This document shows, in pieces, positions 1,053 through 27,396 of a stretch of 28,644 nucleotides of DNA (the first letter of the stretch is position 1; the number at the start of each line of letters is the position of its first letter). Under the pieces are notes generated by a model. The model made no database searches and had not been told where the DNA came from. It worked only from the letters and a program-made list of their open reading frames with translations. The stretch comes from a virus. Lineage: Duplodnaviria; Caudoviricetes. Position numbers and translations under genes: made by a program. The stretch is taken from positions 1-28,644 of the IMG/VR virus record IMGVR_UViG_3300033416_000025; one strand, given 5' to 3'.

Positions 1053-2419
1053 GTTGGTACAACCCTGTGGACTGGTTCACAAAGCGAGTTCCGCTGGAGG
1101 CCGAGCCGGAAGAGCGCGCGCCGATCGACCGTTTCGACGTGGGCGCCCTGGTGGCACCGAAGAGCCCGAGCGGCAAGTCGATCACCGAGGCGACGGCGCT
1201 GGAGGGCACGGTGGCCGTCTTCGCTGCGGTCTCCCTGCTCGCCGACAGTGTCGGCCAACTCCCCTGCCTGACGTACCGCCGGCTCGACGAGCGCAACCGC
1301 GAGCGGATCTCCGAGACGCCGGAGCGCTTTCCGGGCAGCCTCGCGCGTACCCTGCACCAATCGCCGAATCCGGAGATGACGGCGCCGGAGTACTGGGGCA
1401 CCGTCGTCGGCCACGCGGCGACTTGGGGGAACCACTTCTCCTACATCGTCCGCGATCCCTACGGCCGGACGAAGGAGCTCTGGCCGCTGCGGCCGGACCG
1501 GATGGAGGTCTGGCAGCTCGAAGGCCGGCAGGGTATGCCGGCGGCGCGCGCCTACGTCTACCACCTGCCGGACGGCAAGCCGGTCGGGCTGACGCGCAAC
1601 GAGGTCTTTCATGTAATGGCGTTGTCGAGTGACGGAATCACCGGGATGAGCCCGATCTCCGCCGCGGCCAACGCGATCGGGATCGAGCAGGCGGCCGCGG
1701 AGTACACGGCGCGCTTCTTCGCGAACAGCGCCGTACCCGGCGGCGTGCTGCAGTCCGAGAAGGCGCTCACCAAGGAGCAGAGCAAACACCTGAAGGAGCA
1801 GTGGCAGTCGATCGTCGGCGGGCTCTCCAACGCCAACCGGATCGCCGTCCTGCACTCCGGCGTCACGTGGCAGGCCGTCGGCCTGCCGCCGCGCGACAAC
1901 GAGTTCTTGGAGCTCCGGCGCTTCCAGATCCAAGAGGTCGCGCGCCTCTTCCGGATCCCGCTGCACCTCCTGCAGGAGAACACCGGATCGACCTCGTGGG
2001 GCACCGGCATCGAGCAGATGACGATCGGGTTCGTGGTCTTCTGCCTGAACCCGTGGGTCGGTCGGATCACCGCGGCGATCAACCGCGATCTCGGCGACGT
2101 GGCGGCCAACAAGACGCTCCTCGACGAGGGGATCTACGCCGAGTTCCAAGTGAACGCGCTGCTCCGCGGCGACATGGCCTCGCGCGCCGCCTTCTACCAG
2201 TCCGGCATCCAAAACTCGTGGATGACGCCCGAGGACGTGCGCGCCTTCGAGAACCTCCCCTACATTCCCGGCATCGACCGGCCTCAGATCCAAGTGAACC
2301 GCGCGCCGATCGGCGTCGACGGTCTCCCGCAACTACCCGAGCCGCCGGCGCCGCCGGCGCCCAGCGAGCCGCCGGAGGAGCCGGCGGACGGCGATCCCTC
2401 CGAGGAGGATGAACAGTGA
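1049..2419 (+). CDS. Phage portal protein, HK97 family
   Basis: Motifs GNHFSYIVRD..G....LWPLRPDRM, GITGMSPI, FFANSAVPGGVL, EVARLFRIP, MTPEDVRAFENLP. Start placed at GTG 1049 (GTGA overlap with the terL stop, GAGGTG upstream). Pro/acidic C-terminal tail. Confidence 0.95.
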   Translation: MSWYNPVDWFTKRVPLEAEPEERAPIDRFDVGALVAPKSPSGKSITEATALEGTVAVFAAVSLLADSVGQLPCLTYRRLDERNRERISETPERFPGSLARTLHQSPNPEMTAPEYWGTVVGHAATWGNHFSYIVRDPYGRTKELWPLRPDRMEVWQLEGRQGMPAARAYVYHLPDGKPVGLTRNEVFHVMALSSDGITGMSPISAAANAIGIEQAAAEYTARFFANSAVPGGVLQSEKALTKEQSKHLKEQWQSIVGGLSNANRIAVLHSGVTWQAVGLPPRDNEFLELRRFQIQEVARLFRIPLHLLQENTGSTSWGTGIEQMTIGFVVFCLNPWVGRITAAINRDLGDVAANKTLLDEGIYAEFQVNALLRGDMASRAAFYQSGIQNSWMTPEDVRAFENLPYIPGIDRPQIQVNRAPIGVDGLPQLPEPPAPPAPSEPPEEPADGDPSEEDEQ

Positions 2420-3348
2420 AGACCGATTACATCGTCGAGCGGCGCTTCGTCCCGCTCGAAGACGTGGAGGTGCGCGACGACGGCGCCACGCTGAACTTCC
2501 GCGGCCACGCCGCGGTGTTCGACGAGATCACGGACCTCGGTCCGTGGCGCGAGCAGATCGCCAAGGGCGCCTTCAAGAAGACGATCCGCGAGGCGGACGT
2601 GCGCTTCCTCTACAACCACGAGCCGGACAGTGTGATGGCGCGCACAAAGAACGGCACGCTCCGGCTCGCCGAGGACGCCGTCGGCCTGCAGTCCGACGCC
2701 GACCTCGATCCGAGCGATTGGGACGTGCAACGGCTGGCGCCCAAGCTGCGCGCGCGCAACGTCGACCAGATGAGCTTCGCGTTCCGCGTCGTCGGCGCCG
2801 CCGGCGAATCGTGGGACGACGAGCCGGAGGACGGCGGCAAGCCGATCCGTACCCTGCGCGAGCTCGCGCTCTTCGACGTGTCGGCCGTCACCTTCCCGGC
2901 CTATCCGCAGACCGACGGCGGCCTGCGCGCGAGCATCAACGCCGTGGCCGAGCGCCGCGGCATGGTGGTCTCGTGGGACGACGAGCTGCCGGCGTCGCCG
3001 GCCGCTTCAGGCACCGAGGATCCGGGCTTCTTCGCGCGCGGTCACCTCGCCAAGGGCGATCGGCAGGTGCTCCGCGATCTGATCGTCGCCGCCGACACCG
3101 AGCCCGAGCTCGTCGCCGCCGAGGATCGCGCCGGCGAAGCGCAAGAAGAGCTCGCCGAGACCGATGTAGAAGATACCGGGGCGCCGGCGCCTGCCGACGC
3201 GCCCGTGATCGAAGAAGCACCTGAGCCGCTCGACGACGCCGCGCCGGCCGCCGAGGATCCGCAAGGCCAAGAGGATCCGGAGGCACCACGCGGAATGGAC
3301 GCCGCAGCACTGTGGGCGCGTCTCATGGAACTACAGAACACGCTCTGA
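2416..3348 (+). CDS. HK97-family prohead (capsid maturation) protease with long acidic C-terminal extension
   Basis: FRGHAAVFD, EQIAKGAF, FLYNHE (His), DQMSFAF (Ser), LFDVSAVTFPAYPQT. GTGA overlap with the portal stop. Confidence 0.93.
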   Translation: MKTDYIVERRFVPLEDVEVRDDGATLNFRGHAAVFDEITDLGPWREQIAKGAFKKTIREADVRFLYNHEPDSVMARTKNGTLRLAEDAVGLQSDADLDPSDWDVQRLAPKLRARNVDQMSFAFRVVGAAGESWDDEPEDGGKPIRTLRELALFDVSAVTFPAYPQTDGGLRASINAVAERRGMVVSWDDELPASPAASGTEDPGFFARGHLAKGDRQVLRDLIVAADTEPELVAAEDRAGEAQEELAETDVEDTGAPAPADAPVIEEAPEPLDDAAPAAEDPQGQEDPEAPRGMDAAALWARLMELQNTL

Positions 3349-4600: not shown

Positions 4601-4981
4601 ATGGCCGTCCTCAAGGGTAACGCCGCCAGTCTGAAGCTCTCGACCAACACGGTCGCGGAGATGCAGAACTGGGAGCTGTCCGTGGAGCAAGAGTTCCAAG
4701 ACACCACGTCGTTCCTTGATACATTCAGGGAACAAACTCCGACGTTCGCGACTTGGACCGCCACCGCGGCCGGCAAGGTCGACACGACCGACACCAACGG
4801 GCAGGTGGCTCTGCAGACCGCATGGCTCGCCGGCTCGACGGTAACACCGCGCTTCTACATCGACTCGACGCACTACTACAGCGGGACGGCGTACGTCTCC
4901 GCCAACGTGGGTGCTGCGGTTGATGGAATCGTGGAGATCAACTACTCCTTCCAGGGGGCAGGTACGCTAGCGTACACGTGA
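4601..4981 (+). CDS. Putative tail tube (major tail) protein, short form (paralogue 1)
   Basis: Pattern MAVLKG...VAEMQNWELSVEQEFQDTTSF.DTFREQ.P...W....SGTAYVS.NVGAAVDGIVEINYSFQGAG resembles minimal siphovirus tube proteins. Aligns by eye with 13234-13884. RBS GAGGGGG. Confidence 0.72.
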   Translation: MAVLKGNAASLKLSTNTVAEMQNWELSVEQEFQDTTSFLDTFREQTPTFATWTATAAGKVDTTDTNGQVALQTAWLAGSTVTPRFYIDSTHYYSGTAYVSANVGAAVDGIVEINYSFQGAGTLAYT

Positions 4982-5913: not shown

Positions 5914-6783
5914 ATGGCAGGCCTGAGTAACAACCTTGAGAACGAGGCACTCGACCACCTCACCAACGTGGGCAGTTACACCTGCCCCACCACACTCTAC
6001 CTCGCGCTCTTCACCACCAACGGCGACTTCGAGACCGGCGCCTACGCCGGCTTCACCGAGGTCACCGGCGGCGGCTACGCCCGCAAGAGCGTCACCATGT
6101 CAACGACCAACTGGAACAACGCCGCCGACGCCTCGCCAAACGGCAAGAAGGTCACGAACAAGGGGACGTCCGCCTTTCAGTGGTCGGCCGCCTCTGCCAA
6201 CTGGGGCACCGTCAACGGCGCCGCATTGGTCAGCACCTCGTCTGGTACGTGGGAGGGCACCGGCATCGGCCTCTCCTTCGGTGCCGCGCTGACCACGCCG
6301 AAGCAAGTCGACAACGGTGACACATTCGAGTTCCCGGCGGACTCGATCGAGCTGTCGCTGGACAAGGCGACCGAAGCCGGCATCTCCGACTTCTGGAAGG
6401 CCGAGATCCTCGATCACATCACCAAGACCGACGCCTCCTACGGGGCGCCGACGACCGGCTACGTGGCGCTGTTCACCGCCGAGCCCAACTACATCACCGG
6501 CGCCGGCGGCACCGAGTGCTCCGGCAGCGCCTACGCGCGCGAGCCGGTGACCATGGCGACCGGTTGGGAAATCGCCGCCTCCGGTGCGACCGCCAACAAC
6601 GGCGCGATCACGTTCGAGACCGCGACCGGCGACTGGGGCACCATCCTCGGCGCCATGCTGGTCAGCACGGTGTCGGGTGCCTTCGACGCGTTCGCCGGCA
6701 AGACGCTGACCGCCAGCAAGGCGGTCGGCAACGGGGACACGTTCTCGATCGCCGACAACGACTTCGATATCACCCTCGACTGA
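5914..6783 (+). CDS. Putative fibre-associated structural protein made of two tandem homologous domains
   Basis: Two copies of S.....E.LDH.T....Y..PTT.Y.ALFT.....E..G..YAR..VTM...W...A....N.....WGT..GA.LVST.SG.....LT..K.V.NGDTF.......LD (about 5917-6363 and 6376-6780). RBS AAGGAGG. Confidence 0.8.
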   Translation: MAGLSNNLENEALDHLTNVGSYTCPTTLYLALFTTNGDFETGAYAGFTEVTGGGYARKSVTMSTTNWNNAADASPNGKKVTNKGTSAFQWSAASANWGTVNGAALVSTSSGTWEGTGIGLSFGAALTTPKQVDNGDTFEFPADSIELSLDKATEAGISDFWKAEILDHITKTDASYGAPTTGYVALFTAEPNYITGAGGTECSGSAYAREPVTMATGWEIAASGATANNGAITFETATGDWGTILGAMLVSTVSGAFDAFAGKTLTASKAVGNGDTFSIADNDFDITLD

Positions 6784-6792
6784 TAACGCGCC

Positions 6793-7200
6793 GTGCCAGC
6801 GGCGACTCTGACAGAACTACTCGCGGGCCTACCCGCCGACGAGCGCATCGCTCGTAAGGCGGAAGCCTTGGCACGCCTTCTCGCCGACGGTGCCTACACC
6901 GTCGGCAACAAGTCCGTGCCGATCGAGCGGTTCACCACGTGGACGATCGACGGCGTGACGCTGCACCTGGTCGCCGTGCGGTACATCGCCGACTACGGCT
7001 GCCTCGGCGTGATCGTCACCGCGGAGGACGCCGGCGGTCCGCTGCCGGCGCCGCCGATCGCGGGCGAACACTGGATCGTCAACCCGCCCATCTGCGTCCA
7101 CGACGGCGAGACGGTGGTCGAGAGCATCGTCGCCGCGTGCCAGCAGTCCATCTACGAGGCCGTGGTCGCCTACGCGCGTAACCACGGCTGGGGCGGCTGA
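6793..7200 (+). CDS. Hypothetical protein (135 aa)
   Basis: Fills the gap between two structural genes with high-GC3 codons. Has a WIVNPPI motif. Start uncertain because no clear RBS. Confidence 0.65.
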   Translation: MPAATLTELLAGLPADERIARKAEALARLLADGAYTVGNKSVPIERFTTWTIDGVTLHLVAVRYIADYGCLGVIVTAEDAGGPLPAPPIAGEHWIVNPPICVHDGETVVESIVAACQQSIYEAVVAYARNHGWGG

Positions 7201-7203
7201 GCC

Positions 7204-9690
7204 GTGGCGATCACGCACATCTCTAACTCCGCTAGCTGGGTAGCAGAGAACAACCCGATCAGCGGCAACTTCACCTTGCCTACGTCGGGTCACGCGGTCG
7301 GTGACCTTGCGCTATGTATGTGGTACAGCAGGGCGAGCACCAAGTCGTTCAACGCGCCGGACTACTTCGTGAGCGACGGCGGCGTCGCCTTGTACGATGT
7401 CTCTGACGCTAGCTACGGTCACTTGTGGATCGGCGCAAAGCCGCTCACTCAGAACGACATTGACTGGGGCCTCGTCGGTGAAACCGCGTGGAGTTCAACC
7501 TACGTCAATAACGCAACCACGATGTATGGCGTTGCTCTCTTTCGCGGCGTCAATACCACCACGAACTGTGGCGTCGAGGCCAACAGCGGCTCGCCCACTA
7601 CCGGCACCAACGCGGTCAACGCTCCCGCTGTCACGCCTCTCACGCTCGGGGCGTGCGTCGTCGCCATCGGCGGCCAGATGGACGAGAACGACAGTTTCAC
7701 GGTGCCGACCAACTACACGGACTCCGGGCACGCCAGTTCGACCAGCGGCACCGACGCCTGGGGCGGCCTAGCCTACATACTGAACCGTGGCACCTCTAGT
7801 CAGGATCCGGCCGCGTGGGGTTGTGAGAACACGGCGGGCTGGTATGCGTGGACGTGTGCGCTCAAGCCTGCCGACGAAACCTCGCCGGTCACCTTCTACA
7901 GCAACTCCTACGGCATTGGGGATACCTCCGAGGAGGGTCTGACCAACCAGACCAACGCCACCTACGCGACCGCTCGGGAACTGGATCCGGCCACGAGTGC
8001 GAGCACGACGATCTATGCCACCGTCGGTCAGACGACCGGGTACACCTGCTATCAGAGCGTCCTCTCCTTCCCGACCTACACCCTGCCCGACAACGCCTCC
8101 ATCACCACGGGCACGTTCTCGGTCTACGGTTACGCCGACGTATCCACCACCGACTTTGACGTTGAGTGCCGCCAACACGCTTGGGGGTCAACCCTCGACA
8201 CCAGCGACGTGCTCAAGGGCAGCGAGATCTCCGGCGCCACGTTGTTCGCGCACTTCCACACCTCGGCTACCTGGAGCACGACCGGGTACAACGCCTTCAC
8301 CACCGATTCGCTCAGCGTCATCAGCAAGACCGGCCACACCGATCTGCAACTCTGTTCCTCGCGGCAGAAGGACGGCAACACGCCGACTGACAACGAGTTC
8401 GTGCAGGGTTATCTCGCCGCGCAGGCCGGCACGACGTACGACCCCAAACTGTACATCGAGTTCACGAGTGGCGGCGCCAACGAGCAGGGCGCCATCGCGG
8501 TCGCCGCGACCACGTCGGTCGCCGCGGTCGGATCCGTCTCGCACGCCGCTTGGACCGGCGCGCTCGCCTGCGCGGGCGTGACCACGGTCACCGTCGCCGG
8601 CGGCCGGCAGATCAAGGGCGCCGTCGCGATCGACGCCGTGACCACGGTCGCGGTCGCCGGCATCCTCGTCAAGCAAGGCGCGCTCGCCGCCGCGGCCACG
8701 AGCGCCGTCGCCACGGCGGCCACGGTCGCGCACGCTACCTGGCAGGGCGCGACGCTGGTCGTCGCGACCACGAGCACGGCGGTCGCCGGATCTGTCTCCC
8801 ATGCCAACTGGCAGGGCGCGCTCGCGGTCGCCGGATCCACCACCGTCACCGCCGCGGGCGCCGTCGCGCACGCCGCATGGCAAGGCGCGATCGCACCCGC
8901 CGCCGTTACGACCACCGCGGTCGCCGGCAGCGTCGCGCACGTCGGTTGGCAGGGCGCCATCGCCGTCGCCGGATCCTCGACCGTCGAGATCGCCGGCGCC
9001 GTCGCGCACCGCAACCAACAGGGCGAGCTCCTCGCCGCCGGCGCGAGCACGGTCGCGATCGCCGGCACCGTCCAGCAGGGCGGCCAACTTGAGCAAGGCG
9101 CGTTCGCAGCGGACGCCACGTCGACCGTGGCGTGCGCTGGGTCCGTCGTTCATGCCAACTGGCAGGGCGCCATGGCGCCGGCTAGCGCGACCACCGTCGC
9201 GATCGCCGGCACGGTCTCTCACCAAGTACTGCAGGGCGCACTCGCGGTCGCCGGATCCTCGACCGTCGCGATCGCCGGCACCCGCGGACGCTTGGGCGAG
9301 CTCGCGGCCGCCGGCGCGACCACCGTCGCGACTGCCGGCACGGTCTCTCACGCCGCTTGGACTGGCGAGCTCCTCGCCGCCGGCGCGACCACCGCGGCGG
9401 TCGCCGGCACGGTGGCGCACCGCAACCAACAGGGCGCGCTCGCCGTCGAGGCGACGACGGCGCTCCAGGTGTCCGGCTCCTTGGCTCACGCCGCGTGGGC
9501 CGGCGAGCTCGTGGCCGCCGGCAGCTCCGCCGTCGCGATCGCCGGATCCGTGGGCCACGCTGCGTGGCAGGGCGCCTTCGCGCCGGCTGCGGCGACCACG
9601 GTCGCGATCGCCGGCACCGTGGCCGGCGCGGGACCGACGATCGACGCCTACCGCGTCGGCGACGCCGTCCGGATCGAGTGGGTGATCTGA
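7204..9690 (+). CDS. Repeat fibre protein A: N-terminal beta domain, DNRLRE/CBM96-like domain, 17 beta-strand repeats, C-terminal FN3 A-B-like peptide
   Basis: 828-aa ORF. The second domain has YQSVLSF.TYTLPDNASITTGTFSVYG...PKLYIEF. Repeats of consensus xWQGA(L/F/I)AxAGxTTVAIAGTVxHA follow. Confidence 0.8.
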   Translation: MAITHISNSASWVAENNPISGNFTLPTSGHAVGDLALCMWYSRASTKSFNAPDYFVSDGGVALYDVSDASYGHLWIGAKPLTQNDIDWGLVGETAWSSTYVNNATTMYGVALFRGVNTTTNCGVEANSGSPTTGTNAVNAPAVTPLTLGACVVAIGGQMDENDSFTVPTNYTDSGHASSTSGTDAWGGLAYILNRGTSSQDPAAWGCENTAGWYAWTCALKPADETSPVTFYSNSYGIGDTSEEGLTNQTNATYATARELDPATSASTTIYATVGQTTGYTCYQSVLSFPTYTLPDNASITTGTFSVYGYADVSTTDFDVECRQHAWGSTLDTSDVLKGSEISGATLFAHFHTSATWSTTGYNAFTTDSLSVISKTGHTDLQLCSSRQKDGNTPTDNEFVQGYLAAQAGTTYDPKLYIEFTSGGANEQGAIAVAATTSVAAVGSVSHAAWTGALACAGVTTVTVAGGRQIKGAVAIDAVTTVAVAGILVKQGALAAAATSAVATAATVAHATWQGATLVVATTSTAVAGSVSHANWQGALAVAGSTTVTAAGAVAHAAWQGAIAPAAVTTTAVAGSVAHVGWQGAIAVAGSSTVEIAGAVAHRNQQGELLAAGASTVAIAGTVQQGGQLEQGAFAADATSTVACAGSVVHANWQGAMAPASATTVAIAGTVSHQVLQGALAVAGSSTVAIAGTRGRLGELAAAGATTVATAGTVSHAAWTGELLAAGATTAAVAGTVAHRNQQGALAVEATTALQVSGSLAHAAWAGELVAAGSSAVAIAGSVGHAAWQGAFAPAAATTVAIAGTVAGAGPTIDAYRVGDAVRIEWVI
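8476..9630 (+). repeat. Coding tandem repeat, 17 units of ~23 aa (20-25)
   Basis: Hand-parsed from ANEQGAIAVAATTSVAAVGSVSHA to AWQGAFAPAAATTVAIAGTVAGA. Confidence 0.9.
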
Positions 9691-9691
9691 G

Positions 9692-12136
9692 ATGGCCGCC
9701 TCGATCCGTAACATCGGCACCGCCAAAGAGGCGAACGCCGCGAGCATCACGTACGCGACCACGGATCTGACGTGGGACGCGGCGGATCTCATCTTCATCG
9801 TCGCCGGCACCTACGCCACGGACGCGATCGCCTGCGACAACGGCTTCTCCGAGCTGTTCGACACCGGCAAGCTGCACGTCTACTACCGCGCCGCCTCGGG
9901 TTGGTCGGGCACCACCACCGTGAGCGGCGCCTCCGGCCCGATCGCCGCCGGGATCTTCTCGGTGCAGTCGCAAGCCGGCCTCGGCACCGAGACGCCGGCC
10001 AGTACCTCGGGCACCGATACCACCGCCGAGTTCCCGACCTTCTCGACCAACCTCGACGCCGAGCTGGTCCTCGTGCCAATCGGCGTGGCCGACAACAACG
10101 CGCCGTCGCTGACCAGCGGCGGCAACCTCACTGGCGCCACGCTCGTCGACCTCTCGCGTACCTCGCTCGGTAGCGACTGCGGTACGGCGCTGGTCTATGG
10201 CACCATGCCGACCGCCGGCTCGATCGGCTCGGGCTACGTCACCTACTCGCAGTCGGACGCGTGGAACAGCTACGCGATCGCGATCAAGCCTGCGGCGGTC
10301 AACGAGCAGGGCGCCATGGCGCCGGCCGGCGCGACCACTGTCGCGGCCGCCGGCACGGTCTCGCACGCTAACTGGCAGGGCGCCTTCGCGCCGGCGGCGA
10401 CCACGACGACGACGATCGCCGGCACCGTGAGCCATGCCGCGTGGCAGGGCGCCGCGGCGGTCGACGGATCCTCGACGGTCGCGATCAACGGCACGGTCGA
10501 GGAAGGCGGCGTCAACGAGCAAGGCGCGTTCGCCGTCGACGCCGCGACCACGGTCGCGATCGCCGCCGGCGTCTCGCACGCCGCTTGGACCGGCGCGTTC
10601 GCGGTCGACGGATCCTCGACGGTCGCCGCGGCCGGCACCGTCGCGCACGCTACTTGGCAGGGGGAGCTCGGCGCCGCCGGCAGCTCGACGGTCTCGATCG
10701 CCGGCACCGTCACGCTCGGATCGTACATCTCGATCGAGCGCAAGGACGGCGCCGAGGGGACGTACGCCGAAATCACCCAACAGGCGGTCGACTCGTCGCC
10801 GTGGGACGACGACGGACCGTTCACCGCTGGGCACACTTACTACTACCGCGCCCGCGTGTGGGACGGCGACTCGTGGGGCGAGTACGGCAACGAGGATTCC
10901 GTCGCGTGGGGCGCCAACGAACAGGGCGCGTTCGCGGTCGACGGATCCTCGACGGTCGCCGCGGCCGGCACGGTGGCGCACGCCGCTTGGACCGGCTCGA
11001 TCGCGCCGGCCGGCGCGACCACCGTAGAGATCGCCGCCGGCGTGTCGCACGCCGCTTGGAGTGGTGAGCTCCTCGTCGCCGGTGCGACCGCTGTCGCGAT
11101 CGCCGGTACGGTCGCGCACGTCAACCACCAGGGCGCGGCCGCGGTCGAGGCGACCACCGCTGTCGCGATCGCCGGCACGGTGAGCGGCCAGCAGCAAGGC
11201 GCCTTCGCCGTCGCGGCCGTCACGAGCTCCGCGATCGCCGGCCGGGTCGACTACCGCGCCGCGGCCGCGATCGCCGCGACCACGACGACGACGATCGCCG
11301 GCACCGTGGCGCACGTCAACCACCAAGGCGAGCTCGCGGCCGCCGGCAGCTCGTCGACGAGCGTCGCCGGCACCGTCTCTCATGCCGCATGGCAGGGCGC
11401 GCTGGGCGCCGCCGGCGCGACCACCGTGGCGGTCGCCGGATCCGTGGCGCACGCCGCGTGGACCGGCGCGCTGGGCGTCGAGGCGACCACCACGGTCGCG
11501 ATCGCTGGCACGATCGCCGGCGCAGTGGAGGGCGAGTTCGCTGTCGCCGGCGCGACCACGATCGCTGTCGCCGGCTCCGTGAGCCACGTCGCGCTCCAGG
11601 GCGCGTTCGCTGCCGCGGCCGGCACAACCGTTACCGTGGGTGGCGCCGTCGCGCACCGCAACCAACAGGGCGAGCTTCTCGCCGCCGGCACCACGAGCGT
11701 CGCGATCGCCGGCACGCGCGTACACCGCGCCGCCTTTGCGTCCGGCGGATCCTCGTCCGCGGCGATCGCCGGCTCCGTGGCGCACGCTGCGTGGACCGGG
11801 GAGCTCTCCGCCGCCGGCGCGACCACAATCGAGGTCGCCGGCGCCGTCGACCACGCCGCGTGGCAGGGCGCCATGGCGATCGCGGGGACCACCGCGGTCG
11901 CGATCGCCGCCGGCGTCGAGGGGCAGGACCAAGGATCCTTCGCGGTAGCTGCCGTCTCGCGTGTGACGATCAAGGGATACCGCCCGCGCGGCGGCCACTG
12001 GCACTACGAGCGCAACGATCGGCCGCAACGCGGCGGCGATCGCGACACTCCGCCGCGGCGCCCGGATCGCGGCGGCGGCAAGAACGACGGAAGACACGAC
12101 CACGGCCGGCGTCAACGCGGCGGCGGCGAAAGATAG
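9692..12136 (+). CDS. Repeat fibre protein B: N-terminal beta domain, 6 repeats, partial FN3 (strands C-G), 16 repeats, Arg/Gly/Asp tail
   Basis: 814-aa ORF starting 1 nt after the stop of protein A. N-domain is homologous to that of A (ADLIFIV/GDLALCM; WNSYAIAIKPA/WYAWTCALKPA). Same repeat consensus. Confidence 0.8.
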   Translation: MAASIRNIGTAKEANAASITYATTDLTWDAADLIFIVAGTYATDAIACDNGFSELFDTGKLHVYYRAASGWSGTTTVSGASGPIAAGIFSVQSQAGLGTETPASTSGTDTTAEFPTFSTNLDAELVLVPIGVADNNAPSLTSGGNLTGATLVDLSRTSLGSDCGTALVYGTMPTAGSIGSGYVTYSQSDAWNSYAIAIKPAAVNEQGAMAPAGATTVAAAGTVSHANWQGAFAPAATTTTTIAGTVSHAAWQGAAAVDGSSTVAINGTVEEGGVNEQGAFAVDAATTVAIAAGVSHAAWTGAFAVDGSSTVAAAGTVAHATWQGELGAAGSSTVSIAGTVTLGSYISIERKDGAEGTYAEITQQAVDSSPWDDDGPFTAGHTYYYRARVWDGDSWGEYGNEDSVAWGANEQGAFAVDGSSTVAAAGTVAHAAWTGSIAPAGATTVEIAAGVSHAAWSGELLVAGATAVAIAGTVAHVNHQGAAAVEATTAVAIAGTVSGQQQGAFAVAAVTSSAIAGRVDYRAAAAIAATTTTTIAGTVAHVNHQGELAAAGSSSTSVAGTVSHAAWQGALGAAGATTVAVAGSVAHAAWTGALGVEATTTVAIAGTIAGAVEGEFAVAGATTIAVAGSVSHVALQGAFAAAAGTTVTVGGAVAHRNQQGELLAAGTTSVAIAGTRVHRAAFASGGSSSAAIAGSVAHAAWTGELSAAGATTIEVAGAVDHAAWQGAMAIAGTTAVAIAAGVEGQDQGSFAVAAVSRVTIKGYRPRGGHWHYERNDRPQRGGDRDTPPRRPDRGGGKNDGRHDHGRRQRGGGER
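10298..11986 (+). repeat. Coding tandem repeat, 22 units of ~23 aa, interrupted at 10721-10912
   Basis: Hand-parsed: 6 units at 10298-10720 and 16 units at 10913-11986. Confidence 0.9.
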
Positions 12137-13233: not shown

Positions 13234-13884
13234 GTGGCAGTCATCAAGGGTATCAATGCGCGGGTCTACGCGTGCGACGACACCGTCGCGTCGACCACGT
13301 TCACCGGCGAGGCGACGGCCGCCAACGGCGACCGTACCTGCTTCACCATCACCAATACCGCGAAGCGGTTCTGGGATCCGTCGGCGACCTACGTCGTCAA
13401 GCTCGCCGGCAACCCGATCACCTCGTACAGCTCGCTGCAGATGCCGGGTGGCCGGGTGCACTTCGCGAGCGATCCGGGCGCCGGCGCGATCACCGTCGAC
13501 GGCAAGTACTTCGCCGTCGCCGTGTTCGGGCAGTGCAAGAGCTTCGAGCTGGCGGCCGAGTTCGACTACTACGACGCGACGACCTTCGGCGACACGATGC
13601 GGGTCCAGGTGCCGGCCATGCGCTCGGCGACCGTGAGCATCCAAGCGCTCGCGCTCGACGACCTCTCCGGCGGCGACGATCGCTTCAACCTGCTGAAGAA
13701 CGCCAACCTCGTCGGCCTCGACCTGTTCCTCGACGCGACCGGCTCCGCGGAGAAGCGCTACGCGGTCTACGCGCGCCCGTCCAACGTGACGAGCTCGGCA
13801 GCCGTCGACGCTCTCATCGAGCAGCCGCTCAACTTCGCGGTCGTCGACGGTCCGTACTACATCGCCGGCCTCGGCGTCGGCTGA
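13234..13884 (+). CDS. Putative tail tube protein with ~80-aa inserted domain (paralogue 2)
   Basis: MAVIKG start, then KSFELAAEFDYYDATTFGDTMRVQVP and SNVTSSAAVDALIEQPLNF, matching 4601-4981. Strong RBS AAGGAAAGGAG and canonical tube position. Confidence 0.72.
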   Translation: MAVIKGINARVYACDDTVASTTFTGEATAANGDRTCFTITNTAKRFWDPSATYVVKLAGNPITSYSSLQMPGGRVHFASDPGAGAITVDGKYFAVAVFGQCKSFELAAEFDYYDATTFGDTMRVQVPAMRSATVSIQALALDDLSGGDDRFNLLKNANLVGLDLFLDATGSAEKRYAVYARPSNVTSSAAVDALIEQPLNFAVVDGPYYIAGLGVG

Positions 13885-17612: not shown

Positions 17613-20600
17613 ATGGCAGTACCGACTGTCACACTATGCGTACCGCAGTCCGGGCCTCCGGGCACGATGGTGCTCATCACCGGCACCAACTTTGACGAGA
17701 CCGTCTCCAAGGTCGAGTTTGGCTCCTACAGCTCGGGCACCAACTTCGCGGTTCTCGATTCGACCAGTCTGGTCGCCTACGTGCCGGCGGGATCCGGCAC
17801 GAACGTCACGGTCAAGGTGACGAACAGCAGCGGCTACGGTCAGCTCGCCTCGGGGTTCACCTTCGACACCTACGAGGGCGGCGGCGGCGGCGGTGGCGGA
17901 TCGGCGCCGACGGTCTCGGGGATCGCGCCCGAGACCTCGGCCTACACGGACGGCCGCGGCGGCGACGCCGTGGTCGTCTCTGGTAGCGGGTTCACCACCG
18001 CCAACGCGGTCTTCTTCGGCACGATCCCGGCGGAGTTCACCCTCTCGTCGAGTACGCCGGACAGCTCACTGACCGCCTACGCGCCGGCGCAGATGGGCAC
18101 CGTCTACGTGACGGTCCGCAACGCCTACGGCACCTCGGCGACCGGCTCGCAGTGCGACTTCCTCTACGGCGGCGTCTCCAGTCCGACCGTCTCCGGCATC
18201 GCGCCGGCGGCCGGCTGGCCGGGTACTGTGGTGACGATCACCGGCACCGGCTTCGACACCACCACGCAGGTGATGTTCGGCACCTACGAGGCGCAGTACA
18301 CCTACGTCGACGCGACGCACCTCACGGCGATCGCGCCGGTTGGGCCGGCCGCGGGATCCGCGGTCAACGTCGTGGTCTACAACCAGAACGGCGCCAGCGC
18401 GCAGACGAACAACTTCACCTACCAGCAGCGTACCGGGCTGCGGACGACGGCGACCGGCCTGTCTGACGCGCCGTACGAGAACTGGTCCGGCAGCGATATC
18501 ACCGTGACGCTGACCGCCGACGCCGGCGGCGGGCCGGCCGTGGCCGGCACCTACTACCGCGTCAACGGCGGCACGATCCAAACCTACTCGTCGGCGTTCC
18601 AGGTGACCACCGACGGCTGCAACCTCGTCGAGTTCTGGTCGGTCGACGTGACCGGCCTCAAGGAGCCGACGCGGAGCGGCTACGCGAACAAGCTCACCGC
18701 CGGCGGTGTGCCGACCGGGCTCACGGTCACGGCGGGAATCAACACCCTGCACTGCACGTGGAATCCGGTCGCCTCCGAGGGCGCCGTCTCCTACAAGGTC
18801 TACTGGGGCGCCCAGAATCCTCCGACCGATCACGTGCAGGCGGTCGGGCAGGCGTACTACATCATCTCGCATCCGTACGCCGACGGCGGCCAGTACGTGC
18901 AGGTGTCGAGCGTCGACGCGCTGTCGCGCGAGAGCTCGAAGTGCTCCGTGGTCGGACCAACGACTCCGCTGCAAAACTCGACCGAGATCGCCGATCACTC
19001 GATCACCAACGACAAACTCGTGTTGACCATGCGTCCGCCGACGCTCAACGCCACGGCGCCGACGCTGCCGGCGACGGAGTACCCGGCCGGCTCGACCTAC
19101 TACAACACGACCGACGATCTGCTTTATGTTACCAAGGACGGTAACACTTGGACGAAGGTCGTCAACACGACCGACCTCGACGGCACGATCGCCACCAACC
19201 AGATCGCGGACGACGCGGTCACGTGGGGCAAGCTCGCCACCGAGTTGACACCGCCGCGGATCGTCTCCTCACTGCCGACGCTGCCGGACTCGAACTACCC
19301 GGCCGACTCGTACGTCGTGCTGACGACGGACGACAAGCTCTACGTGACCAAGACCGGCCTCGCCGACTCGTGGGTGAAGGTCGTCAACACCACGGACCTC
19401 GACGGCACCATCGCCACGACACAGATCGCGGACGACGCGGTCACGTGGGGCAAGCTCGCCACCGACCTAGCGCCGCCACGGCTCAAGAGCAGCGCGCCGA
19501 CGTTGCCTGACGCTGATTACCCGGCCGGGTCGACTTACTACAACACCACGGACGACCATCTCTACGTGACGGAGGACGGCAACACGTGGGTGCGTGCGGT
19601 GCGTGCTGCACAGTTGGACGGTCAGGTGGTAGAGAGTCAGATCGCGAACGACGCGGTCACCAACGCCAAGATCTATGCCGGCGCCGTGAGCGCGCTGGAG
19701 CTCGCCTCAGACGCCGTGACCGCGGACAAGATCGCCGCCGGCACGATCTGGTCGCGCTCGCTGTACGTGGGCAACTTCGAGAACCTCATCATCAACGGCA
19801 CGTCCGAGATGGACGTGACCAGCGCGCCAACCAACGCGGTCGAGGCGACTGGCATCTCGACCGACTACGCCTACCAGGGCACGCGGAGCCGCAAGCTGCA
19901 GGGCGGCGACGTGTACACGTCGTTCGACGTGACTGGGTGGATCCCGGTCCAGGCGGGCGAGATCTACCGTTACGGCGCGACCATGCGCCTCTCGGCGTCG
20001 TCGACCGGCCACGCATACTTCCAAGTGGTGTTCAAGCAGGTGGGCGAGGTCTACGACTACGGCAACACCGGCACGGTCTCGGGCACCTCGTGGGAGGAGA
20101 AATACGGCTCGCTCACGGTGCCCAGCGGCTACGTACAGATGAAGTTCCAGTGCGCCACGTACCAACTCACGGCGTCGAAGTACGCCTACTTCGACAACAT
20201 GATGTGCACGCGGCGCACGGACGCGAACCTCCTCGTCGACGGCACCGTGACCACGGACAAGCTCGCGGCCAACGCCGTGACCGCCGCCAAGATCGCCGCG
20301 GACACGATCACCGCGGCGGAGATCGCGACCGATACCATCACCGCGGCGGAGATCGCGACCGGCACGATCACCGCGGCGGAGATCGCGACCGATACCATCA
20401 CCTCCGGGTGCATCGCCGCCGGCGCCATTAGCGCGAGCGAGCTGGCGGCCAGCTCCGTCTATGCCAAGAACCTCATGGTCGCCAACTTCGACAACCTCAT
20501 CCCCAACCCGATGAGCGAGTTGGATCACACCGGCAAGGACGTTGCTCAAGACGGCGGCGACCTCGACTTCCGCGGGGTCTCCTCCGACTACTACTTCCAC

Positions 20601-23585
20601 GGCGCGCACAGCCGCAAGGTGACGGACACCAACGGCAGCCACTACTACATGGAGATCGCCCAGCGGATCCCGTGCGCCGAGGGCGAGCAATACTTCGGCG
20701 CTGGGTACTTCCGTTGCGGCGTGACCGAGGACGCCGACCACGGCGTGAAACTCCTCATCGTGGGCATAGACGCGAGCGAGACCGCCGTGCAGTACTCGTT
20801 CACGGAGTTCGTCCAGAGCACCTCGTGGACGGCGAAGACGGTCTCCTTCACGGTCGCCTCGACCGTGGTCGCCTTGCGTACGTATGTCGAGATGTACGGC
20901 AGCGCCGCGGGGCGCTCGGGTTACGCCGACGAGCTGCTCCTCCGCCGCAAGAACGACGGTTTCTTGATCGTCGACGGCGCGATCACCACGGACAAGCTCG
21001 CGGCCAACGCGGTCACCGCGGCCAAGATCGCCGCGGACACGATCACCGCGGCGGAGATCGCGACCGGTACGATCACCGCGACCGAGATCGCCGCGGACAC
21101 GATCACCGCGGCGAAGATCGCTGCCGGCGCGATCGGCGCTGACGAGCTCGCGGCCGATTCGGTCTACACGAAGAACCTCATGATCGGGAACTGGGTCAAC
21201 CTCATCCCGAATCCGGAGTCGGAGTGGGACCACACCGGCAAGACCACGACCATGTCGGGCGACAACGCAGACATGGACTTCCGCGGCGTATCGAGCACGC
21301 TGTACTATCGCGGCGCGCACTCGCGCGAGTTTCCCGGCAACGGCGCGGGGCAGTACTGCTGCATCACGCGCAACTTCCCGGCGCACGCCGGCGACACGTT
21401 CTATCTCGAAGCGATCATGCGCTGTACCAGCGCGACCGGCGCCGGCACCGGCGCGCAGATCCTCTTCTGCGGCGTCGACAGCGGCGGCACCGGCAAGGAG
21501 TGGAGCGGCACCGGGCGCGTCGACGGCACGACGTGGACCGTCGGCAACTGTACGTACACCGTGACCGACACAACCGTGGTCGCGGTCAACGTGCAGGTGA
21601 CGCAGACCGTGTCGGCCGGCAACTCCGCTTGGTTCGACGATCTCAAGTGCTACCGCGTGAGCGAGGGCGTGCTGATCAAGGACGGCGCGATCACCGCCGA
21701 CAAGATCGCCGCCAACACAATCACGGCGGCCAAGATCGCCGCCAACACAATCACGGCGGCAGAGATTGCCGCCAACGCGATTACCGCCGACGAGCTCGCG
21801 GCCAACTCCGTCACCGCGGGCAAGATCGCCGCGGCCGCCGTGGCCGCCGACGCAATCGCCGCCAACTCGATCTTCGCCAAGCATCTCACGGTCGCCGACT
21901 GGGACAACCTCATCCCCAACGGCAACTCCGAGAAGGACCACACGAGCAAGGATTGTACCGAGACCTCGACCGACGTGGAGTTCCGCGGCGTGGTCGATTC
22001 GCCGCACAACGGCGTCAGCGCCTACCAAGGCGCGCATATGCGTCACCTGACCGGCGGCGCCGGATACACCGGCTACATCGTCTCACCGTACATCCAGTGC
22101 AAGGAGGGCGACTCGTTCGTCTTCGAGGCGTGGATGCGGCTGGAGGCGGACCAGGGCGCCGATGGCGCCTACCTGCAGTTCGTCTTCTACGACGAGAACT
22201 TGGCGAACCCGTCGTTTGTCGGCCAAACCGCGGCGTACAACGACACGACCTGGTCGCTGGTACGCACGACCTACACGGCAGCGGCGGGCAAGTCGTTCGT
22301 GGTCGCCATGGTGGCGGGCTACGCGCACGCCAGCAACGACGCGCTCTTCGACGGTCTCCTCTTCCGCCGGCGCGCCGGCGCGAGCATGGTCGTCGACGGC
22401 ACGCTCACCGCGGACAGCCTCGCGGCCAACACGATCACCTCGACCTCCGCCTGCATCGGCTCGCTCTCGGCCTCGAAGATCAACGCCGGCACGATGAGCT
22501 GCGACTACCTGAGCGGCGGCACGATCAACGGCCAGACGATCACCGGCGGTACGATCACCTCGCCGACCTTCCGCACGGCGGCGAGCGGCAAGCGTATCGA
22601 GATGACCGGCTCCTACGAGGATCGCGTCACCTTCTACCCGTACACCGATTGCACCTACGGCAACGCCGCCTACATCGTCACCGGCGGCACCTCGTCGGCG
22701 CCGTGGCTGCAGTTCCAAGGTCCGACCGTCGGCAGCACGTACGGCTATCTGCGGATGACGGCGACCGACGCGAGCACGGACTACTCGACGCTTCAGGTGG
22801 ACGCCGATCAGGTCATCATCGGCTCGGGCTATCCGGGCGACGCCGGCGAGTGCGCCACGGCGCTGTCCGGCGCGGTCACGTTCGGCCCGTCGCGCAAGGC
22901 GTCGGTGAACCGCGAGTGGGATTTCATCGGCACCACTGTGCAGCACGACACCGGCAACTACATCGATATGTGGTACTGCTACGACCTCAACAGCGGCGCA
23001 ACCCTCACCGCGGTTGGGGCGGGCATCGATCACCCTGGGGTCATCGACTACACCACCGCCGCGTCGGCCAACGCGGGCTTCCGTATGTACACGAACATGG
23101 AGGCGATCCGCTTCACCACCTCGACCACGCCGCCGTACGACTTCGACTACGCCGAGTACGTGTTCCGGCCGGAATCCGTCAGTACCAACGTATCGATGCG
23201 CCTCGGGTTCTGTAGCTGGTGGAACCACGAGAGCGCCGCCAGTGTCAACGGCTACGGCGTCTACGCCTTCACCGTGGGCACCGGGTCGTACTGCAACCTC
23301 ATCGGTCGCGTGGCGATCTACGGCACCACCTACAGCACCGGCACCTCGTACAACATGACGAACGGCACGTGGTACACGCTGCGCGTCAAGGTGCATCAAG
23401 GCACACACGCCGACTTCTACCTCTACACCGCCGACGGTACGTGTGTCTGGAATGACTACGTGAGCTACTGCCCGACCGGAACCGACCTGTCGCACGGCTG
23501 GGTCGGTTGGACCGACGTGGCGACGGCGTACAACTTCGCGGACTTCGACTACATGAACCTCTATCTGGCCCCAAGGAGCAGGTGA
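17613..23585 (+). CDS. Large multidomain tail fibre / host-recognition protein (1990 aa)
   Basis: Three IPT/TIG-like repeats (PTV..I.P..G..GT.V.ITGTGF), an Ig-like domain (TYYRVNGG...VEFWSVD), an FN3 domain (PTGLTVT...TWNPV...SYKVYW), three ~73-aa shaft modules, four CBM-like jelly-roll modules separated by 10-aa ITAAKIAADT repeats, and an aromatic-rich C-terminal domain. Confidence 0.88.
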   Translation: MAVPTVTLCVPQSGPPGTMVLITGTNFDETVSKVEFGSYSSGTNFAVLDSTSLVAYVPAGSGTNVTVKVTNSSGYGQLASGFTFDTYEGGGGGGGGSAPTVSGIAPETSAYTDGRGGDAVVVSGSGFTTANAVFFGTIPAEFTLSSSTPDSSLTAYAPAQMGTVYVTVRNAYGTSATGSQCDFLYGGVSSPTVSGIAPAAGWPGTVVTITGTGFDTTTQVMFGTYEAQYTYVDATHLTAIAPVGPAAGSAVNVVVYNQNGASAQTNNFTYQQRTGLRTTATGLSDAPYENWSGSDITVTLTADAGGGPAVAGTYYRVNGGTIQTYSSAFQVTTDGCNLVEFWSVDVTGLKEPTRSGYANKLTAGGVPTGLTVTAGINTLHCTWNPVASEGAVSYKVYWGAQNPPTDHVQAVGQAYYIISHPYADGGQYVQVSSVDALSRESSKCSVVGPTTPLQNSTEIADHSITNDKLVLTMRPPTLNATAPTLPATEYPAGSTYYNTTDDLLYVTKDGNTWTKVVNTTDLDGTIATNQIADDAVTWGKLATELTPPRIVSSLPTLPDSNYPADSYVVLTTDDKLYVTKTGLADSWVKVVNTTDLDGTIATTQIADDAVTWGKLATDLAPPRLKSSAPTLPDADYPAGSTYYNTTDDHLYVTEDGNTWVRAVRAAQLDGQVVESQIANDAVTNAKIYAGAVSALELASDAVTADKIAAGTIWSRSLYVGNFENLIINGTSEMDVTSAPTNAVEATGISTDYAYQGTRSRKLQGGDVYTSFDVTGWIPVQAGEIYRYGATMRLSASSTGHAYFQVVFKQVGEVYDYGNTGTVSGTSWEEKYGSLTVPSGYVQMKFQCATYQLTASKYAYFDNMMCTRRTDANLLVDGTVTTDKLAANAVTAAKIAADTITAAEIATDTITAAEIATGTITAAEIATDTITSGCIAAGAISASELAASSVYAKNLMVANFDNLIPNPMSELDHTGKDVAQDGGDLDFRGVSSDYYFHGAHSRKVTDTNGSHYYMEIAQRIPCAEGEQYFGAGYFRCGVTEDADHGVKLLIVGIDASETAVQYSFTEFVQSTSWTAKTVSFTVASTVVALRTYVEMYGSAAGRSGYADELLLRRKNDGFLIVDGAITTDKLAANAVTAAKIAADTITAAEIATGTITATEIAADTITAAKIAAGAIGADELAADSVYTKNLMIGNWVNLIPNPESEWDHTGKTTTMSGDNADMDFRGVSSTLYYRGAHSREFPGNGAGQYCCITRNFPAHAGDTFYLEAIMRCTSATGAGTGAQILFCGVDSGGTGKEWSGTGRVDGTTWTVGNCTYTVTDTTVVAVNVQVTQTVSAGNSAWFDDLKCYRVSEGVLIKDGAITADKIAANTITAAKIAANTITAAEIAANAITADELAANSVTAGKIAAAAVAADAIAANSIFAKHLTVADWDNLIPNGNSEKDHTSKDCTETSTDVEFRGVVDSPHNGVSAYQGAHMRHLTGGAGYTGYIVSPYIQCKEGDSFVFEAWMRLEADQGADGAYLQFVFYDENLANPSFVGQTAAYNDTTWSLVRTTYTAAAGKSFVVAMVAGYAHASNDALFDGLLFRRRAGASMVVDGTLTADSLAANTITSTSACIGSLSASKINAGTMSCDYLSGGTINGQTITGGTITSPTFRTAASGKRIEMTGSYEDRVTFYPYTDCTYGNAAYIVTGGTSSAPWLQFQGPTVGSTYGYLRMTATDASTDYSTLQVDADQVIIGSGYPGDAGECATALSGAVTFGPSRKASVNREWDFIGTTVQHDTGNYIDMWYCYDLNSGATLTAVGAGIDHPGVIDYTTAASANAGFRMYTNMEAIRFTTSTTPPYDFDYAEYVFRPESVSTNVSMRLGFCSWWNHESAASVNGYGVYAFTVGTGSYCNLIGRVAIYGTTYSTGTSYNMTNGTWYTLRVKVHQGTHADFYLYTADGTCVWNDYVSYCPTGTDLSHGWVGWTDVATAYNFADFDYMNLYLAPRSR
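19035..19670 (+). repeat. Three ~72-74-aa coding repeats (PTLP..YPA.S.Y..TTDD.LYVT...W.KVVNTTDLDG.IA..QIADDAVT)
   Basis: Units start at about 19035, 19251 and 19473, with long identical DNA stretches such as CAGATCGCGGACGACGCGGTCACGTGGGGCAAGCTCGCCACCGA. Confidence 0.88.
20301..20402 (+). repeat. 30-bp coding tandem repeat (TITAAEIATD/G)
   Basis: ATCACCGCGGCGGAGATCGCGACCG occurs at 20307, 20337 and 20367. Related arrays lie at about 20985-21160 and 21685-21870. Confidence 0.9.
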
Positions 23586-26017: not shown

Positions 26018-26677
26018 ATGCTCGTGTTCAACCTGCTACGGCGCCACGTGGCGCTGGTCCTGCTCGCGTTCATCTCCGCGGCCGGCGTCGGCACCGTGCT
26101 GGTCGCCGGCGCTCCAGGCGCCGTGTTCGGCGAGCCGGCCGGCGTCTCGCGTGCCGCGCACCAACAGATCAATGGCCTGCAGCGCGAGATCCTCCGCCTC
26201 GATCGACGCGTGGAGGATCTGCAGGTGCAGATCAAGCACTTGAAGGCCAACGTGCGCGAGTTGGAGAAGTCGAAGCGCGCGTGGATCCGCTGGGGCCGGC
26301 ACTGGCGCAACGTCGCGCGGCACGGCGTCACCGGGCGCGCGATCACCGTGGTGCGCCTCGCGCGGGCGCAGCTCGGCAAACCGTACGTCTTCGGCGCCGC
26401 CGGCCCGTGGGCCTTCGACTGCTCGGGGCTGGTCAAGTACGTGTTCAACAAGGTAGGGATCCACCTGCCACACGCCGCGACCTACCAGCAGCGCGCCTCG
26501 CGGCGGATCTCCCTGTCGTCGCTGCGCGCCGGCGACCTCGTCTTCTACGGCGGCTACTACCGCTCCTACCACGTCGCGATCTATGTCGGCGGTGGGCGCA
26601 CGATCGAGGCGACCGACGGTCACGTGCAGTACGGCTGGGTCGGCAACGCGTGGATCGGCGGGACATTCTTCCACTGA
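26018..26677 (+). CDS. NlpC/P60 (C40) cell-wall peptidase with N-terminal signal/TM segment and coiled coil
   Basis: LGKPYVFGAAGP..FDCSGLV, LRAGDLVFY, HVAIYVGGG..IEA. Hydrophobic N-terminus VALVLLAFISAAGVGTVLV and heptad stretch INGLQREILRLDRRVEDLQVQIKHL. Confidence 0.93.
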   Translation: MLVFNLLRRHVALVLLAFISAAGVGTVLVAGAPGAVFGEPAGVSRAAHQQINGLQREILRLDRRVEDLQVQIKHLKANVRELEKSKRAWIRWGRHWRNVARHGVTGRAITVVRLARAQLGKPYVFGAAGPWAFDCSGLVKYVFNKVGIHLPHAATYQQRASRRISLSSLRAGDLVFYGGYYRSYHVAIYVGGGRTIEATDGHVQYGWVGNAWIGGTFFH

Positions 26678-26743
26678 GGCGGTTACCGAGACGCCGTCTA
26701 GCATGGAATCGTACCTAGACCTCTCATTCAAGGGGGACCGACC

Positions 26744-27394
26744 ATGAAGGTATATCTGAGTCCATCGCTGCAGGAACAGAACATCGGAGTTGGCGACTTC
26801 GGCAGCGAAATGTCGCGCGCGTTCCAAGTAGCCACGCTCGTGAAGGGTTATCTGGAGCCGGCCGGCATCACGGTGCGAACCTCGAAGCCGGAGTGGTGCA
26901 AGCTGCCGAGCTCCGAGCTGCTCGCGCAGGTGGTCGCCGACTCGAACAACTTCGGCGCCACGCTGCACGTCTGTCTGCACACCAACGCTGGCGGCGTGAT
27001 GGATGACGGCACGCTCGTGATGCACTATCCGGGCAGCGCCAAAGGTCTCAAGCTCGCCGGCCTGATCTACAAGCGCCTCGCGCCGATCTCGCCGGGGACC
27101 GACTACGGTCTCGTGTCGCAGCCGGTGTTCTACGAGACGCGCAAGGCGAACGCGGTCGTCGTCTACGTCGAGGCGGCCTTCCACACGAACCCGGCCGAGG
27201 CCAAGGACTACGTGTTCGCGCGCAAGCTCTACGCGTGGGCGATCGCGGCCGGGATCCTTGAGTACGCCGGCAAGCCGGTCCCGGTCAAGCCGGTGGCCTC
27301 CTTCCAGTACCTCAAGGTGCCGATCCCGATGCGGAAGCCGGCGTGGTGGAAGTACCTCGAAGCCTACCTCGCGCGCGTGAAGAAGACGGGCTGA
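26744..27394 (+). CDS. N-acetylmuramoyl-L-alanine amidase (Amidase_3-like), putative endolysin
   Basis: KVYLSPSLQ, SE, LHVCLHTNAG, FYETR.ANAVVVYVEAAFHTN, AIAAGILEY. Confidence 0.88.
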   Translation: MKVYLSPSLQEQNIGVGDFGSEMSRAFQVATLVKGYLEPAGITVRTSKPEWCKLPSSELLAQVVADSNNFGATLHVCLHTNAGGVMDDGTLVMHYPGSAKGLKLAGLIYKRLAPISPGTDYGLVSQPVFYETRKANAVVVYVEAAFHTNPAEAKDYVFARKLYAWAIAAGILEYAGKPVPVKPVASFQYLKVPIPMRKPAWWKYLEAYLARVKKTG

Positions 27395-27396
27395 CG

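Follow-up and report, generated by a model that had tools for sequence, protein, structure and literature searches.

Two adjacent genes of an uncultured phage, A and B, encode repeat proteins that carry complementary parts of one FN3 domain, with its first two strands at the C-terminus of A (the tag) and the other five in an insert within the repeats of B (the socket). These halves are conserved as a pair and probably join into a single FN3 domain, which would hang A as a branch on the rope formed by the repeats of B. The split is real, conserved and portable, and combines two known devices. Docking of A into B as a side branch had been proposed in the initial annotation; the split proved to be conserved and the complex is predicted, while the branch itself we infer.

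Gene neighbourhood and sequence of the two halves

The stretch of DNA analysed, hereafter the window, is a linear virus record of 28.6 kb (28,644 nucleotides) that is 56% complete. Terminase, portal, prohead protease and capsid genes were recognised in it by inspection, and tail, tape-measure, tail-fibre and lysis genes occur downstream of these capsid-side genes, pointing to a phage with a long-tail gene set. Genes A and B are placed between the capsid gene and the head-tail adaptor gene, and their products have no Pfam or PHROG match. A tandem gp80 gene is located two genes upstream of A (Table 1), which suggests that A and B are likely the ropes of a GP4-type chain-like fibre, with the joint as a branch point, and that the tandem gp80 protein is likely the bead coating them. 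This function of the repeats, to which the Pfam (PF23140) and PDB (8jou_A) matches of the neighbouring gene point, was left out of the initial annotation. The repeat period fits that of the solved rope, and a comparison of the repeats with PDB sequences gave only five chance rows. The product of the small gene preceding A has no Pfam, PHROG or NCBIfam match; its counterparts are L002:428-838 and L003:782-1261, the latter placed between both proteins of a second split pair (see below). The window also contains two tail-tube-like genes, one coding for a 126-aa PF06199 protein directly after the capsid gene (4601-4981) and the other, a second and weak major-tail match, at the usual place (13234-13884).

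Table 1. Features of the A/B cassette, in window positions
Feature	Position	Strand	Basis or remark
Tandem gp80, two PF23140 domains in one chain	5914..6783	+	Pfam E 5.7e-46, 2 stretches; PDB 8jou_A E 9.3e-4; halves 41% identical
Small gene accompanying the cassette	6793..7200	+	look-alikes by eye in L002 and L003
Protein A, whole gene	7204-9690	+	828 aa
Protein A tip, two all-beta domains (about 1-225, 226-425)	7204..8478	+	AF2 pLDDT 71.5
Protein A rope, 17 repeats of 20-25 aa	8485..9627	+	16 units by script, one double unit counted by eye
C-terminal tag, FN3 strands A-B with strand-B Trp (W826), then stop	9631..9690	+	sequence matrices, complex prediction
Protein B, whole gene	9692-12136	+	814 aa
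Protein B tip domain, residues 1-203	9692..10300	+	related clusters unnamed, largely viral (0.96-0.97)
Protein B rope, 6 repeats ahead of the socket	10307..10717	+	repeat split
Socket, FN3 strands C-C'-E-F-G inserted in the rope	10721..10909	+	profile, PDB and structural matches
Protein B rope, 16 repeats past the socket	10922..11977	+	script, count completed by eye
Arg/Gly-rich C-terminal tail of B	11978..12136	+	conservation; head-tail adaptor (phrog_442) is the next gene

The tip domains of A and B lack Pfam matches, and no significant BLAST similarity was found between the B tip and the first A tip domain. The model of the A tip has no fold match in the PDB at E<=0.001 and 32 matches in BFVD at the same threshold, mostly to uncharacterised phage proteins, while the second A tip domain is weakly DNRLRE-like (NF033679, E 5.6e-5, below the cut-off). 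At the other end, the B tail is 70% and 83% identical to those of two relatives, compared with 40-56% for the ropes, and may anchor B to the virion near the neck. The C-terminus of A carries the tag alone, the conserved tail of the B type being absent there. The Arg/Gly-rich tail is nearly invariant in P0003 and L005, and other socket ropes terminate in about three copies of a motif, with a gene coding for about 100 aa coming next (L009, L025).

The sole non-repeat insert of B spans residues 344-406, starting at S344 between repeats 6 and 7 of 22. When it was used as a query, 808 of 1.84 billion representatives matched at E<=0.001; those listed are mostly multi-repeat proteins, aligned from query residue 10 onward. 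On an FN3 profile of length 101, made from 316 intact domains cut from these matches, the insert covers positions 39-96 with 55.8 bits and nothing precedes it. By profile, it is thus FN3 strands C to G beyond chance, in agreement with the initial annotation, which had placed C-G in the insert with no A-B ahead. Strands C-C'-E-F-G with the tyrosine corner are present in the insert, and strands A-B with the strand-B Trp occur on the separate chain of A. A profile of the 12 sockets described below matches the PDB entry 3mpc (residues 33-93, E 3.4e-5) and other FN3 domains, while a phmmer search of the PDB with the insert gave one chance row. At the curated cut-off of Pfam fn3, neither A, B nor the 12 sockets match, as expected for half domains.

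The tag consists of 19 residues, GPTIDAYRVGDAVRIEWVI, directly following the last of the 17 repeats of A. Its fit to strands A-B including the Trp, as originally read, was assessed with two matrices, built from 150 A-B segments of intact FN3 domains and from four distant tags. On the former the window tag scores -3.9 bits, which is not significant, and still ranks first among the 225 ORF ends in the window; on the latter it scores 15.9 bits, with the next ORF end at -3.7. Taken alone, it is therefore a weak FN3 match. Joining the tag to the insert in a script gave 55.0 bits, compared with 55.8 for the insert alone, without extending the match on the profile, the tag being undetected by the HMM. 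An isopeptide bond between the halves was considered and discarded, Lys being absent from the A-B segment of all seven tags known. The sockets at L025:6899-7117, L025:8600-8818 and L030:6899-7117 have a Cys on strand F and another on strand G, which may form a stabilising disulfide within the half domain.

Distribution of the split across loci

A C-G socket inside a repeat protein was found by collection scans at 12 distinct loci, with duplicates of one record or phage counted once: the window (L001), L002, L003/L004, L005, L006, L007, L009, L014, L023, L025, L030 and L059/L060. The repeats of these loci belong to about eight consensus types, as judged by eye, their G+C content ranges from 43% to about 70%, and rope repeats occur on both sides of the socket in all 12. 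As L005, L009, L014, L023 and L059 begin inside the socket gene, the count of upstream tags takes in the other seven loci, all of which have an upstream gene ending in a tag. Aside from that of the window, these tags are GPLIDAYRVGDYIRIEWVV (L002), GPTIAVERVGDAIRVSWS (L003), PPTISAAQSGSNIVVSWT (L006), ASLTAAQVGPNIRLNWTF (L007), LVLTAVQHETHIDLTWVAA (L025) and VNLTAVQDGANIALEWTY (L030). The tag gene is adjacent to the socket gene in six of the seven loci, L025 being the exception with two genes in between. Because the window, L002 and L003 are closely related to one another, the seven tag loci represent five independent lineages. Homologous pairs that keep the split point, with differing gene junctions, argue against a one-off or a misassembly, both of which had been raised at the outset.

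Compared with L002, the tag and the socket are each 79% identical and the ropes 48-55%. The proteins that carry the tag differ, a 178-aa protein without repeats ending in it in L006 and a 463-aa protein with three repeats in L030. The position of the socket likewise varies, from three to six repeats from the tip in the closest relatives. Genes for gp80 are recognised by Pfam in four of the seven tag loci (window, L002, L006 and L025); there is no such Pfam match in L007 and L030, and L003 ends before that position.

With the matrix of intact A-B segments, the tag gene ranks first among all ORF ends in each of the seven loci (225, 48, 40, 78, 123, 59 and 78 ORFs). The six tags from outside the window score 1.8 to 16.5 bits, the best of 1865 ends in 26 other loci reaching 0.6. 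Leave-out matrices made from four tags also place all seven tags first (11.6-28.5 bits), while a five-tag matrix detected no tag among the same 1865 ends (best 6.9 bits). Eight control loci picked for a gp80-like or rope gene (L031, L055, L063-L068), a set which draws on six of 17 phage records, contain neither a socket in a rope nor a tag among their 685 ORF ends (best 6.2 bits). An intact FN3 domain of the same subtype is encoded by a small gene in the control L031. Within the 12 socket-bearing ropes, no tag-like stretch was found (best 8.5 bits). In the control L055:3-4240, homologues of both A tip domains are found on a pair of neighbouring ropes, and split FN3 is absent; the rope encoded first ends in an apparently intact beta-sandwich domain, an alternative form of attachment.

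In L003, where each tip domain of A has a protein of its own, a second FN3 is cut, and at a different point. Two repeats and then strands A-B-C-C' make up the C-terminal end of the first protein (3-812), which is truncated at the contig start. In the second (1239-3248), E-F-G is located between tip and rope, with an A-B tag at the C-terminus, and a C-G socket is contained in the third. A scripted fusion of the first pair reaches 22.1 bits on the FN3 profile (positions 14-85), versus 8.2 and 11.4 for its halves. Two complementary partitions in one operon, found at this one locus, are hard to explain as decay. A possible third cut point occurs in L014:1385-3493, where a second rope gene after the socket gene has an FN3-like insert of a different subtype that may lack the first strand.

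Several sockets may also be combined. The 57-kb record L025, which is 76% complete, contains two sockets and one tag gene; P0108 is a 150-aa protein without repeats comprising two C-G sockets in tandem, and P0110 a rope-like protein of 307 aa with two sockets and a piece consisting of E-F-G only. Neither P0108 nor P0110 includes a tag within the protein, and both are possible multi-branch adaptors.

Single-sequence scans of viral contigs with the insert and with the tandem gp80 yielded no relative. Three sockets compared by tblastn with 50,697 phage records had no significant match, so that no cultured phage with the joint was found. A third homologue search, restricted to proteins of 539-2000 aa, gave at least 120 matches, those listed being FN3-annotated proteins. 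A pattern search of genome contigs gave 15 matches, two of which are rope sockets; the other 13 were set aside as FN3-like domains in non-rope proteins, sulfatase-like proteins or chance. None of the 23 loci retrieved with the relaxed viral pattern added a new socket, L048 among them giving no ORF match. For L060, the upstream gene that is missing was sought at the opposite end of the record and not found outside bases 20001-21843.

Predicted complex and alternative explanations

In keeping with the docking that had been proposed, a confident complex was predicted between residues 337-417 of B and 793-828 of A, with an ipSAE of 0.64 (runs 0.65, 0.64 and 0.64) compared to 0.07 for the best of three controls. 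The ipSAE mark is reached by 116 of 157 solved complexes and two of 215 mismatched pairs, counts that are only roughly valid with the alignments used here. The runs agree in at least 96% of contacts, with a partner pLDDT of at least 62. The tightest contacts link B W371-D373 (strand E) with A 821-824 (strand B) and B 402-404 (strand G) with A 813-817 (strand A), and the rope part of the A fragment is outside the predicted interface. These modelled contacts are those of the FN3 topology, in which strand B of the tag would pair with strand E of the socket and strand A would lie against strand G. As split-domain halves tend to pass by their likeness to solved folds, the score shows fit, not binding, and may be due to intact FN3 folds or the phage structure 5E7T having been memorised by the model.

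The five-stranded socket could instead be a self-sufficient mini-domain, stable by itself, in homodimeric form or through a rope repeat that completes it in cis, serving as a spacer or kink, with the tag a remnant or docking elsewhere. Folding of the insert by itself had been weighed against docking from the outset; the AF2 model of the insert alone forms five strands, at a moderately confident pLDDT of 72.9. Among the FN3 domains that Foldseek lists for this model none reaches E<=0.001, and in many structural alignments the rope flank of the socket model (model residues 1-7) is aligned to the FN3 positions before strand C, which would suit completion in cis. The FN3 profile also runs on into the preceding repeat for three of the 12 rope sockets scored, and the tandem sockets of P0108 and P0110 and the two sockets per tag in L025 likewise count in its favour. 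The mini-domain is nevertheless unlikely given the tag in all testable socket loci and in none of the controls, its absence in cis from the 12 ropes, its retention on unrelated passengers, one of them without repeats, and the complex prediction.

If A is joined to B through a composite FN3 domain, the likely trunk of the rope-and-bead fibre would be B, with its C-terminal tail as the anchor close to the neck. One tandem-gp80 bead would be threaded by each repeat of about 23 aa by sheet augmentation, as in the phages GP4 and A1002. The joint, 16 repeats from the B tail, would then give rise to a 6-repeat arm and a 17-repeat arm with different all-beta tip domains, probably for adsorption. If a bead takes up about 27 A, the lengths would be about 600 A for B and about 460 A for A. 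The joint could also be real without giving a free side branch, if A forms cross-links from one fibre to the next or tethers fibres to the capsid, or if the short N-terminal arm of B folds back to leave one long end-to-end fibre. Fibres of GP4 and VP1 lie against the head and those of A1002 wrap the tail (PMC13730344), the socket position varies among relatives, and the geometry is not fixed by sequence or by the complex model, all of which would accommodate such arrangements. They are considered improbable, as repeats flank the socket on both sides and A and B each have their own N-terminal tip domain, from which a three-way junction would follow if both sides are beaded.

A single ancestral gene disrupted by an insertion, the alternative named in the initial annotation, or by a sequencing error, or one whose parts are rejoined by frameshifting or readthrough with FN3 folding in cis, is highly implausible as the origin of A and B, for although the genes abut (TGA, one base, ATG) and the L030 junction is in frame, the same stop is present in L002, the split recurs in the five lineages with different junctions (a one-base gap, an ATGA overlap, a TGATG overlap, in frame, and two genes between in L025) and conservation is higher in both halves than in the ropes. 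The differing junction frames also led to the rejection of a programmed frameshift linking A to B.

Comparison with known fibres and split domains

Donor-strand complementation in chaperone-usher and type V pili likewise has one chain fill in the incomplete Ig-like fold of another. There the donor is a single strand belonging to an N-terminal extension, and the product is a linear polymer of repeating subunits. The A/B joint differs in its two-strand C-terminal hairpin and its single junction, with one socket match in the record.

Although no such arrangement in phage fibres was known to the initial annotation, a solved phage precedent exists in the baseplate tripod of Tuc2009, where the C-terminal beta-hairpin of BppU (296-321) completes domain 2 (230-286) of BppA (PDB 5E7T; PMC4742702). 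BppA is an accessory carbohydrate-binding protein (PMC9692632), and the composite domain resembles titin 2NZI (PMC4742702). As predicted for the A/B pair, a C-terminal two-strand hairpin of about 20-25 aa completes a 57-residue beta-sandwich of another chain, with the same cut and the same fold. The socket model aligns with 5e7t_B 229-285 at Z 6.8 (rmsd 2.0, 57 residues, 9% identity), tied with many ordinary FN3 domains, the best of which has Z 7.6, while BppA is not among the 22 PDB matches (E<=10) of the socket profile. The two systems differ in that the Tuc2009 joint is part of the baseplate, whereas the present genes occur between capsid and head-tail adaptor and likely belong to a chain-like fibre. 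The roles are also exchanged: in Tuc2009 the structural protein donates the hairpin and the passenger has the acceptor at its C-terminus, whereas in the A/B pair the tag is on the passenger and the acceptor is internal to a repeat protein. The A/B joint would work like BppU/BppA, but is no member of that system by position or detectable sequence.

The chain-like fibres of the podophages GP4, VP1 and A1002 (PF23140, PDB 8JOU) share with the window a gp80-family bead gene beside long low-complexity beta-repeat proteins. Fibres of the GP4 type are attached by way of a collar or nozzle. In A1002, 11 gp80-like dimers are arranged on a rope of about 300 A, each via an augmented beta-sheet (PMC13730344), which by our own division amounts to roughly 20 residues for each dimer; GP4 has a distinct rope protein that connects five dimers (PMC13730344). 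As described, these fibres have one rope and no branch, and the term 'branch' is absent from that report (PMC13730344), whereas the window combines a long-tail gene set, a fused tandem bead, two ropes and a split FN3. The neck fibre of A-1(L) is a chain of trimers, a different design (PMC10966104). Binding of a separate A-B hairpin by an FN3 fragment is also found in anastellin with strands A and B of fibronectin FN3-3 (PDB 5J6Z), with which the socket model aligns at Z 6.4 (rmsd 3.9, 68 aligned); anastellin differs in being an engineered fragment of a human matrix protein, with no gene pair.

A literature search, screened by title and abstract opening and with most subscription journals outside its coverage, returned no socket inside a rope, branched chain-like fibre, split-FN3 fibre or two cut points in one operon. 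New with respect to the precedents are the socket inside a rope, the portable tag and the occurrence of two cut points within a single operon. With a rope-borne socket, branching and the swapping of tip domains become genetically accessible by adding about 17 codons to a gene, which explains the presence of several rope genes per operon with only one anchor-like tail. With such a motif, fibre topology becomes predictable from sequence. At 19 and about 62 residues, both partners are small, and the double cut in one operon suggests that orthogonal tag-and-catcher pairs exist in nature, of use in protein engineering and display. As a tentative generalisation, which may or may not hold, a plug-and-socket kit could be common to rope-and-bead phages, in which a 17-residue FN3 tag hangs any passenger on a socket anywhere in the rope. 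In this kit, cuts in different FN3 loops would provide orthogonal connectors and so dictate which parts assemble first, giving tree-shaped fibres with several tips.

L007:4694-10003 codes for a rope protein of 1.7 kaa that has a polysaccharide deacetylase domain (PF01522) close to the N-terminus and a further large domain interrupting the rope past the socket. The window itself encodes a 1990-aa tail protein (17613-23585) with three TIG domains, carbohydrate-binding-like domains and decapeptide repeats, the N-terminal part of which has a close look-alike in L006. Near the end of the window (26018-28428), a coiled-coil NlpC/P60 protein, an Amidase_3 endolysin and an HTH-metallophosphoesterase are encoded consecutively.
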